64,000 bases of DNA from Pseudomonas phage Pa_AttikonH10: sequence record PQ741806.1; one strand, given 5' to 3'. The notes beneath the pieces are model-generated. The model was not told the DNA's origin. It saw only the letters and a list, made by a program, of their open reading frames with translations, and made no database searches. Positions 55,798 through 56,855 of this stretch are shown here, in pieces. Within the stretch, counting starts at the first letter, position 1; each line of letters begins with the position of its first letter. The position numbers and the translations under genes were made by a program.

Positions 55798-56286
55798 TTA
55801 AGCAAATTTTTCAGGAGCACCACGTACCATTACACAGATCCATGATTGTCCATTATGGGAACGTTTTACTTCATGTAATTGGGATAGATGAAATACTAAT
55901 CCTTCACCTTTTCCAATTAATAGTTCTTCGCCATCTAAAATGAACTTAGCATCAGGTCCAATATTCCAAGCAAGAATAGTACCGGACTCGGGTTTATCTA
56001 CCCAATAATTCATCTCATCTAGAAATCCATCTATTTTGGGGAAATCTAAAAACCATACTTGTAATGCTTTGTTAAATAGTTCTTCGCCTAAAATTGGTTT
56101 AATTTCTTTACGCTGTTTAGCAGTCCAATTAAACCATTTTGAAGTATTATAAACACTACATGCTTTAAGGCCATTAGTGCCAACTCGCATACGGTGGCCA
56201 TATGAGTCTCTAAATGAAACTTCACCTTTAAGCTTTGTTAATGTTTTTAGTTCTGTCTTAGATAGAGTCTTAAGTTTAATTGCCAT
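55798..56286 (-). CDS. double-stranded beta-helix (cupin-like) protein, 162 aa; degenerate paralog of 56295..56855 lacking the HxD motif
   Basis: AWNIGPDAKFILDGEELLIGKGEGLVFHLSQLHEV aligns with ALNDNGDGITINGEFYQDVPGRATIFPIRSEPHEV of the neighbouring protein. Confidence 0.5.
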   Translation of the reverse strand: MAIKLKTLSKTELKTLTKLKGEVSFRDSYGHRMRVGTNGLKACSVYNTSKWFNWTAKQRKEIKPILGEELFNKALQVWFLDFPKIDGFLDEMNYWVDKPESGTILAWNIGPDAKFILDGEELLIGKGEGLVFHLSQLHEVKRSHNGQSWICVMVRGAPEKFA

Positions 56287-56294
56287 GTTGTACC

Positions 56295-56855
56295 CTACTC
56301 GTAGAGATATATAAGGACGTATCTTTTATTTTTAACTGGAGGGACCTCATGTGGCTCTGAACGGATTGGAAAAATAGTAGCCCTACCTGGTACATCCTGA
56401 TAAAACTCACCATTGATCGTTATACCATCGCCATTGTCATTTAATGCAATAACCATGTTGTAACGATAAACAGCTTGGTCGATGTGCTCAGGCATACCTG
56501 TACCAATTTCATATCGATTGATTAGTACTTCGCCTAACCAAGCACCTTCTACCTTAGGTGCAATATGAAATAGTAATTCCCGTAATTCTACTGGCATTTG
56601 GTTATGACCTAAAAACCAATAATCACATTCAGTGATACCTTTGGTTGGGATACTATTAATTTTTTTCCGATTAAACCACCAGGAATCTTCCAGTGTATCC
56701 AGATAAGATACAAGGTCAGCTGCAAATTCAGCTGAAAACACGTCCTTGGTCGATCTTTCGTGGGCCGATAAGCTCATGCAGGCCACCTGCATATCGATGT
56801 GCTTTCTCAGCGTCGAGATCTTCCCTGGATTTATAGATAACGTCTGGGCTCTCAA
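56295..56855 (-). CDS. 2OG-Fe(II) oxygenase-superfamily protein (candidate protein hydroxylase), up to 186 aa; start uncertain (possibly Met22 or Met27)
   Basis: HxD ... H facial triad with the right spacing and beta-strand context: MPEHIDQAVY ... 45 aa ... IFPIRSEPHEV, with basic residues at +6 to +10 (KNKRYV) for 2-oxoglutarate binding. Its 5' region overlaps the upstream ORF. Confidence 0.55.
   Translation of the reverse strand: MRAQTLSINPGKISTLRKHIDMQVACMSLSAHERSTKDVFSAEFAADLVSYLDTLEDSWWFNRKKINSIPTKGITECDYWFLGHNQMPVELRELLFHIAPKVEGAWLGEVLINRYEIGTGMPEHIDQAVYRYNMVIALNDNGDGITINGEFYQDVPGRATIFPIRSEPHEVPPVKNKRYVLIYLYE

Follow-up and report, generated by a model that had tools for sequence, protein, structure and literature searches.

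The 64,000-nucleotide stretch of DNA from Pseudomonas phage Pa_AttikonH10 that was analysed here (PQ741806.1, one strand; hereafter the window) carries in its tail-fibre region two adjacent open reading frames (ORFs), the counterparts of gp137 and gp138 of phage phiKZ, which together with gp136 appear to form a mobile accessory cassette of the tail fibre encoded directly upstream, aiding maturation of the fibre tip. The probability of this reading is put at about 0.6. An initial annotation, made from the letters of the window, had described the two ORFs as an intact 2-oxoglutarate (2OG)-Fe(II) oxygenase and a triad-less copy of the same double-stranded β-helix (DSBH) fold, and had proposed a collagen-like fibre protein encoded some 7 kb away as the substrate. 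The oxygenase was borne out by conservation of its triad and arginine, a Pfam PF13640 match just short of the cut-off and a DSBH model. The gene to which the cassette is consistently linked, however, is that of the fibre immediately upstream and not the one at a distance of 7 kb.

The facial triad read in gp137 is present as H-I-D plus a distal His, with the basic residues Lys, Lys and Arg at +6, +8 and +9 after that histidine. Among 95 distinct family sequences, a set that takes in distant members (27-40% identity), H98, D100, R152 and N87 are found without exception (95/95), H143 and Y89 with one exception (94/95), and an alignment of 25 relatives has H98, D100, H143 and R152 all invariant. 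The triad His and Asp, which should be conserved in orthologues if the annotation was right, are thus each retained in at least 94 of the 95. Such motif conservation is far beyond chance at the level of sequence, and because the iron and 2OG ligand set is near-invariant in proteins otherwise only 27-60% identical, selection for catalysis is suggested. Pfam PF13640 (2OG-FeII_Oxy_3, prolyl-4-hydroxylase (P4H)-like) matches gp137 with E=1.6e-5 and 26.2 bits, the gathering cut-off being 27, and a precomputed database table assigns this family to an identical protein and to several orthologues. A search of 5.8 billion proteins returned 64 relatives, and all the named ones are phage proteins. The AlphaFold2 model (predicted local distance difference test, pLDDT, 91.5) has the DSBH oxygenase fold, and its comparison with known structures found the anticipated similarity to 2OG oxygenases, with scores of 15.0 for PPHD of Pseudomonas putida, 14.7 for PiuC, 14.5 for the Dictyostelium prolyl hydroxylase domain (PHD) enzyme, 14.1 for the PBCV-1 collagen P4H and 12.5-13.2 for AlkB homologues. 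The protein is unusually small, its chain stopping at the last barrel strand. R152 sits 9 residues past the distal His, and its role in binding the 2OG C5-carboxylate is assigned by analogy; a PHD/P4H type is favoured because of this Arg at +9 and because the second arginine of AlkB is missing. Together, the sequence and model data identify gp137 as a real, conserved 2OG/Fe(II) oxygenase, an enzyme class that we regard as settled. Its best explanation is that of a catalytically competent, minimal PHD/P4H-like hydroxylase, a prediction that we consider reasonably probable, and the fold family suggests hydroxylation of a protein side chain as its chemistry.

The second protein, gp138, had been called clearly paralogous to gp137, and the homology is real, although 'clearly' was too strong, the relationship being visible only with profiles of both families and with structures. 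BLASTP of gp137 against gp138 gave no significant match (E=0.92) and the gp137 profile against the single gp138 sequence reached 0.3% probability, whereas hhalign of the gp137 family profile against that of the gp138 family (a 56-sequence alignment from a search of 1.84 billion representatives) gave 94.9% probability (E=4.3e-8) over 141 columns. A word-indexed search for gp138 relatives found near-identical copies only, and a full HMMER scan of the 1.84 billion representatives found 73; two long 'relatives' (P0107 and P0131) were discarded as repeat artefacts. In structure comparison gp138 has the DSBH fold, as in gp137, and the gp137 model also matches the PhiPA3 gp138 orthologue in BFVD. The copy was further said to have lost the HxD, which holds for the first His but not for the whole motif: the family reads F/L-L-D, with the Asp and the distal His kept. 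Across 97 members, position 88 holds Phe in 71, Leu in 8 and His in 6 (these six reading H-L-D); 91/97 keep D90 and 82/86 the distal H138. The hhalign register pairing gp137 HID with gp138 W-V-D was dropped in favour of F88-L-D90, given the near-invariant Asp and the six H-L-D members. The residue that hhalign places opposite gp137 R152 is Gln, so gp138 does not have the complete triad and 2OG-binding basic residue expected of a competent oxygenase. Lacking one iron ligand and the 2OG-binding Arg, it is a pseudo-enzyme as judged from sequence, and a few of its relatives may still be active. An expanded cassette was observed in two IMG/VR jumbo-phage contigs of about 231 kb (L028 9463-11688 and L029 9463-11673), where a gp136-like gene is followed by a gp137-like gene, a 221-aa gp138-like gene with an insertion in which H-L-D is kept, and a second triad-intact gp137-like gene; up to three potentially active oxygenases may thus stand behind a single fibre gene.

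The genetic context of the trio was examined in 37 loci from annotated phages and IMG/VR, 30 first collected and 7 further (L034-L039). In 37/37, the genes for the fibre, gp136, gp137 and gp138 lie tightly packed on one strand, with a gp136 homologue directly upstream of the gp137 homologue and a fibre-like protein encoded by the ORF next upstream of gp136 in every locus. The arrangement spans jumbo, T4-like, 115-kb and P2-like phages, that is, at least four tail architectures, and BLASTP of the window against the read regions of QdP_Psa3, the T4-like phage Milchi and two IMG/VR contigs found the trio as the only proteins in common. The N-termini of the upstream fibres are lineage-specific, with PF12571 in QdP_Psa3 and the P2-like contigs and a gp131-like N-terminus in the phiKZ gp133-135 fibres (PMC13250141). 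A profile search from gp133, gp134 and gp135 revealed a C-terminal domain (CTD) of about 100 aa common to the upstream fibres across lineages; the profile retrieves exactly the ORF upstream of the cassette in L004 (E=2.5e-13), L005 (E=1.5e-7), L025 and L027-L030, and also the P2-like fibres. The P2-like clusters read V, W, J, I, fibre, trio, sheath, tube, and the trio fills the slot that the fibre-assembly gene G has in P2. In Milchi, the module lies between baseplate-wedge/collar-fibre genes and the head-tail adaptor gene, presumably corresponding to the wac position in the T4 gene order. Immediate downstream placement and co-inheritance with the fibre CTD, as expected of a chaperone module, were found in all 37 loci; no Tfa-family match for gp136, gp137 or gp138 was found in Pfam, PHROG or NCBIfam. 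A pattern scan of limited sensitivity over representative bacterial genomes gave no relatives and no sign of prophage or tailocin copies, and the hosts of the 71 isolate-phage records with a gp137 gene are all Pseudomonas. As far as these sequences reach, the gene order is invariant and the trio has been transferred across lineages, both of which we hold to be firm.

The phiKZ cryo-EM atlas describes three copies of gp131 with gp133, gp134 and gp135 as a hetero-hexameric fibre base, the distal parts of which are unresolved (PMC13250141). The CTD of these fibres has no match in Pfam, PDB or NCBIfam, and the proline of its 'P-x-G-T/S' motif, considered as a hydroxylation target, was rejected, being missing in several lineages. 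In the gp136 family N151, K155, E95 and E186 are invariant, and the EGG-x-H-E tail is nearly so; its members are all unnamed, 94-212 aa long and without fusions, with no match in Pfam, PDB or NCBIfam and no relatives of known function detected. Because gp136 has invariant residues and the fibre CTD none that could be hydroxylated, gp136 stays an alternative target. His-x-His motifs were observed in the fibres upstream of the cassette, as in 'PPAPHGHEYW' of gp135 and 'PNGHMHAYW' of gp134 (57330..60094 of the window), and P2-like fibres (L037 6077-6997 and L039 6032-6997) carry tandem 'SH-x-HD...' or 'PP-x-AH-x-H' repeats; these motifs resemble the HxH repeats that bind metal in the shaft of the T4 gp37 fibre.

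The orthologues of the trio in phage 201phi2-1 (gp221-223) carry no mass-spectrometry virion flag, and nearly all annotated neighbours are flagged; likewise, gp136-138 and gp146 are not mentioned in the text of the phiKZ structural atlas (PMC13250141). In the phiKZ transposon-insertion sequencing (Tn-seq) data, Table S2 lists 0-3 reads for all of PHIKZ128-PHIKZ142 except PHIKZ137, with 577 reads at 2 sites (604 reads at 8 sites when untrimmed). No insertions were recorded in gp136 and gp138, and the fibres and gp146 were not hit, while dispensable genes of similar size mostly have 3-13 sites and, within the late block, insertions were also tolerated in PHIKZ143 (a virion protein; 332 reads, 5 sites) and in the tiny ORF 144.1 (PMC12676376). 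As PHIKZ137 takes insertions, gp137 is considered dispensable on the laboratory host.

These data can be accommodated by a model in which the trio would move horizontally together with the C-terminal tip domain of the upstream fibre, would be made in infection without being built into the virion, and would help to fold, assemble or modify the fibre tips, those of gp135 and, via the common CTD, probably those of gp133 and gp134. Within it, gp137 would supply hydroxylase activity acting on the adjacent fibre or on gp136, the linkage pointing to the fibre tip (or gp136) as the hydroxylated substrate. As a probable non-catalytic partner or chaperone, gp138 would work with gp137 as a pair, and gp136 would be a third partner giving non-catalytic help. 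Hydroxylation would then be a non-essential refinement, with gp136 and gp138 needed for assembly. A more specific version, in which gp137, the pseudo-enzyme gp138 and gp136 form a mobile host-range cassette that matures the receptor-binding fibre tip by enzymatic hydroxylation, is offered tentatively and is doubtful at present.

Several points weigh against the accessory-cassette model. All loci were gathered with the cassette proteins as the starting point, so that CTD fibres without a cassette lie outside the sample. We infer both the hydroxylated residue and any physical contact among the cassette and fibre proteins. The fold comparison puts halogenases, PiuC and AlkB homologues only a little behind, and the chemistry is not fixed by the fold. 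No Pro, Lys, Asn, Asp or His is invariant in the fibre CTD to mark a target site, and the conservation patterns are such that gp136, not the fibre tip, could be the substrate. Finally, gp137 is dispensable on the laboratory host, and insertions in it are expected to be polar on gp138, which complicates the view of gp138 as essential.

The collagen-like gene named in the initial annotation is real (gp146), lies 6.7 kb from the pair and does have Y-position prolines: its seven Gly-X-Y runs of at least 6 triplets hold 64 triplets with 12 Pro at Y and 26 at X. These 12 prolines, the late structural region that the two genes share and the textbook precedent from giant eukaryotic viruses would suit a collagen prolyl-4 (or lysyl) hydroxylase acting to stabilise the gp146 triple helices, a role for gp137 that we nevertheless consider very unlikely. 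The gp146-like fibres of phages with a triad-intact gp137 have 0-3 Y-position Pro per 18-60 triplets (6/99 in Phabio) and an erratic 1 to 37 Y-position Lys, the Gly-X-Y runs of homologous fibres in other chimalliviruses reading, for example, GTDGTNGTNGTNG or GDKGDKGDKGDT. The complete 114.8-kb genome of QdP_Psa3 has the cassette, and no credible collagen-like ORF was found in it; nor were collagen-like genes found in the stretches read of T4-like and P2-like cassette carriers. An (X-Pro-Gly)n substrate thus does not co-occur with gp137 as it should for a collagen P4H, and the cassette always adjoins a different fibre gene, not gp146. Moreover, gp137 has no peptide-substrate-binding domain, and Tn-seq makes gp146 essential and gp137 dispensable. 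Collagen-like fibre proteins of prophages have already been described (PMC3368898); work cited there holds that the triple helices of bacterial collagens are stable without hydroxyproline, and Pro in gp146, twice as common at X as at Y, follows this bacterial, hydroxyproline-independent pattern. QdP_Psa3 has a single Gly-X-Y run of 6 or more triplets (L031 20298-20615; 12 triplets in a 105-aa ORF), and this one was rejected, as it is antisense to a real gene for a 392-aa protein with a Pro/Thr/Asp-rich linker; collagen-like motifs can therefore be reverse-strand artefacts of Pro/Thr-rich coding sequence.

Among the other readings, it is unlikely that gp137 is a host-directed hydroxylase, acting on a Pseudomonas protein (as the host's own PPHD does on EF-Tu), surface receptor or small molecule and lying beside the fibre genes through co-transfer or timing. 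The gp137 gene is dispensable in the laboratory and 71/71 isolate-phage records with it infect Pseudomonas, yet a host-takeover gene would hardly be expected to keep an invariant linkage to a fibre gene, gp136 and gp138 over four or more unrelated tail architectures. In addition, gp137 has a late, structural position, and its sequence identity to PPHD is only 16%. Slightly less credible is the view that neither DSBH protein is enzymatic and that both, with gp136, are structural fibre chaperones or low-copy tip adhesins: the chaperone slot taken by the trio in P2-like clusters, the loss of an iron ligand already seen in gp138 and the lack of transposon insertions in gp136 and gp138 agree with it, but the essentially invariant iron and 2OG ligands of the 95 gp137 sequences and the non-detection of the trio orthologues in the 201phi2-1 virion do not. 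An AlkB-like nucleic-acid demethylase or repair enzyme, to which the database label 'DNA endonuclease' is a related reading, is the least probable of all. The lone, and hence best, PDB sequence match of the gp137 family profile is ALKBH8 (E=0.011), at N-x-Y-x-x-G-x-x-x-x-x-H-x-D (I-N-x-Y-E-x-G-x-G-x-P-x-H-I-D in the match), spanning only residues 79-112 of the 160-position profile, and Pfam PF13532 matches gp137 weakly (E=0.13). Prolyl hydroxylases, however, stand above AlkB homologues in fold score, and the AlkB motif R-x-N/S-x-T-x-R has two arginines where gp137, with its PHD-type Arg at +9, reads R152-Y-V-L-I-Y-L158, the second being Leu. At 160 aa the protein is too short for a nucleotide-recognition lid; its neighbours are fibre genes, not genes of DNA metabolism, and nothing suggests a nuclease.

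Two observations concern the surroundings of gp146. GC content is 0.44-0.46 over 46001..50000 of the window (gp146 and part of gp145) against about 0.37 elsewhere, which fits the Gly/Pro codon load, foreign origin not being needed. In a divergent chimallivirus-like contig (L034 12398-14161), a protein of the gp145/146 neighbourhood matches Pfam Lcl_C, the Legionella collagen-like protein C-terminal domain, a sequence match that gives a hint of which domain family the gp145/146 fibre heads belong to.

The window is 99.1% identical to vB_PA32_GUMS and 97.5% to phiKZ (both over 55000-58800), and its sequence marks the source as a phiKZ-like Pseudomonas phage; the two ORFs were assigned to PHIKZ138 and PHIKZ137 by synteny with NC_004629 (Table 1). 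Both were confirmed at the positions first reported, on the minus strand, and the genes do belong to the tail-fibre module, where the pair had been placed between tandem fibre paralogs; it lies instead directly downstream of the fibre paralogs and of gp136. The reading frame 56295..56855 is real, its TTG start at 56855 unlikely: an ATG at 56777 with AGGTGG ahead is favoured and matches the 483 nt and 160 aa of PHIKZ137 in the phiKZ annotation. The 3' end of gp136 overlaps the start of gp137 by 50 nt. Downstream, the hairpin at 55769..55788 may close the fibre-plus-cassette unit as a transcript end or processing site, to judge from its sequence. Another short inverted repeat, GTACAGTGTAC, comes after it within the 95-nt gap between gp138 and gp139. 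Between gp139 (DUF7208) and the endolysin lie PHIKZ140 (54240..54803), a RuvC-like resolvase homologue (phrog_159, E=1e-38) within an otherwise structural block, and PHIKZ141 (53718..54224), an Rz-like spanin.

Table 1. Features of the cassette region and the collagen-like gene, in window coordinates.
Feature	Coordinates	Strand	Description
gp137 (PHIKZ137)	56295..56777	-	Predicted minimal 160-aa 2OG/Fe(II) oxygenase, PHD/P4H-like type; H98-x-D100...H143, 2OG-binding R152
gp138 (PHIKZ138)	55798..56286	-	162-aa degenerate gp137 paralogue, DSBH fold; F88-L-D90, H138 kept, Arg replaced by Gln; probably pseudo-enzyme
gp136 (PHIKZ136)	56728..57330	-	200 aa, fold unassigned; first in trio; near-invariant C-terminal EGG-x-H-E motif
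gp135	57330..58748	-	Tail-fibre protein, gp133-135 paralogue; phrog_2163 and tail-fibre PHROGs; last ~100 aa are the shared CTD
gp134	58721..60094	-	Tail-fibre paralogue, same CTD, GNG-containing variant
gp133	60106..61494	-	Tail-fibre paralogue, same CTD
GC-rich hairpin TCCCCTCC-ATGT-GGAGGGGA	55769..55788	-	Perfect 8-bp stem, 10 nt past gp138 stop; pattern match
gp146 (PHIKZ146)	45785..49066	-	Collagen-like fibre protein; Gly-X-Y runs; substrate proposed initially

In the databases, PHIKZ137 bears the RefSeq label 'DNA endonuclease', inherited from phrog_2297, for which we see no support in the sequence or predicted fold of the family. The name has spread via RefSeq and GenBank (PHIKZ137, NC_010821 gp222 and many PHROG/Pharokka genomes), and in BFVD a similar label, 'DNA endonuclease V', stands on a DSBH protein of a cyanophage. 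Some records already identify PHIKZ137-like proteins as 2OG oxygenases, the orthologue of phage Churi being named '2OG-Fe II oxygenase' (GenBank OM718002) and that of Psa21 'Fe2OG dioxygenase domain-containing protein' (UniProt). A literature search limited to open-access texts found no paper on gp137 or gp138, on the trio or on fibre maturation linked to an oxygenase; there appears to be no earlier description of the pseudo-enzyme partner, or of the fixed trio and its joint transfer with the fibre tip over at least four tail architectures. To our knowledge, there is no example of oxygenase-dependent tail-fibre maturation in bacteriophages. PHIKZ136 and PHIKZ138 may now be annotated as conserved oxygenase partners. 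Host choice is set by fibre tips and their chaperones, and the same parts are swapped in therapeutic phage engineering. If the accessory-cassette model is true, tip transplants without the trio may fail, and fibre function could depend on the supply of oxygen and iron, a point relevant to hypoxic Pseudomonas biofilms and the cystic fibrosis lung. In the hydroxylation version, fibre quality, perhaps along with adsorption or host range, would hinge on the O2, Fe(II) and 2-oxoglutarate of the infected Pseudomonas cell. Phage structural proteins may also carry enzymatic hydroxylation overlooked by standard proteomics.

Among known systems, the PHD-type prolyl hydroxylases (PPHD 4iw3, Dictyostelium PHD 6t8m and human PHD2) share with gp137 the HxD...H motif and the Arg at +9, and they act on folded protein substrates, as gp137 would. 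In comparison, gp137 falls short of them by 40-60 residues: its chain stops with the last barrel strand, which leaves no C-terminal helix, and it, judging by its length and secondary structure, probably has no counterpart of their long substrate-gripping loop; identity is 11-16%, and gp137 is paired with a degenerate paralogue. The PBCV-1 enzyme vCPH (5c5t) and the mimivirus lysyl hydroxylase L230 (6ax6) are believed to act on fibre-like proteins of their own virus. They are, however, enzymes of eukaryotic viruses with Pro- or Lys-rich repeat substrates, whereas gp137 does not co-vary with Y-position Pro or Lys and occurs in genomes without collagen-like genes. Also encoded by phages are the cyanophage 2OG-Fe(II) oxygenases (PHROG 61 and relatives), small PHD-like phage enzymes as gp137 is, which are its next-best BFVD structural matches after the orthologues and structurally resemble human EGLN3 (PMC12774648). 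These belong to another sequence family than phrog_2297 of gp137, with 12-19% identity, and for them no fixed association with a pseudo-enzyme, with a protein like gp136 or with a particular fibre domain has been reported.

The pairing of an enzyme with a pseudo-enzyme of the DSBH fold, as in gp137 and gp138, has parallels in the TlxI/TlxJ heterodimer (7vbq) and the PHD2-like domain of vaccinia C16 (8ag3), both unrelated to phage fibres; adjacency and co-inheritance suggest that gp137 and gp138 may likewise form a heterodimer. In its position, the trio resembles the fibre-assembly proteins P2 G, lambda Tfa, Mu U and T4 gp38/gp57A, which are encoded immediately 3' of the fibre and exchanged with its C-terminal tip, and, like fibre chaperones, the trio orthologues were not detected in the virion of 201phi2-1. 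Each of the known fibre chaperones is one small protein that lacks an enzymatic fold, whereas here three proteins follow the fibre, one of them, to judge from its conserved residues, apparently an active oxygenase.

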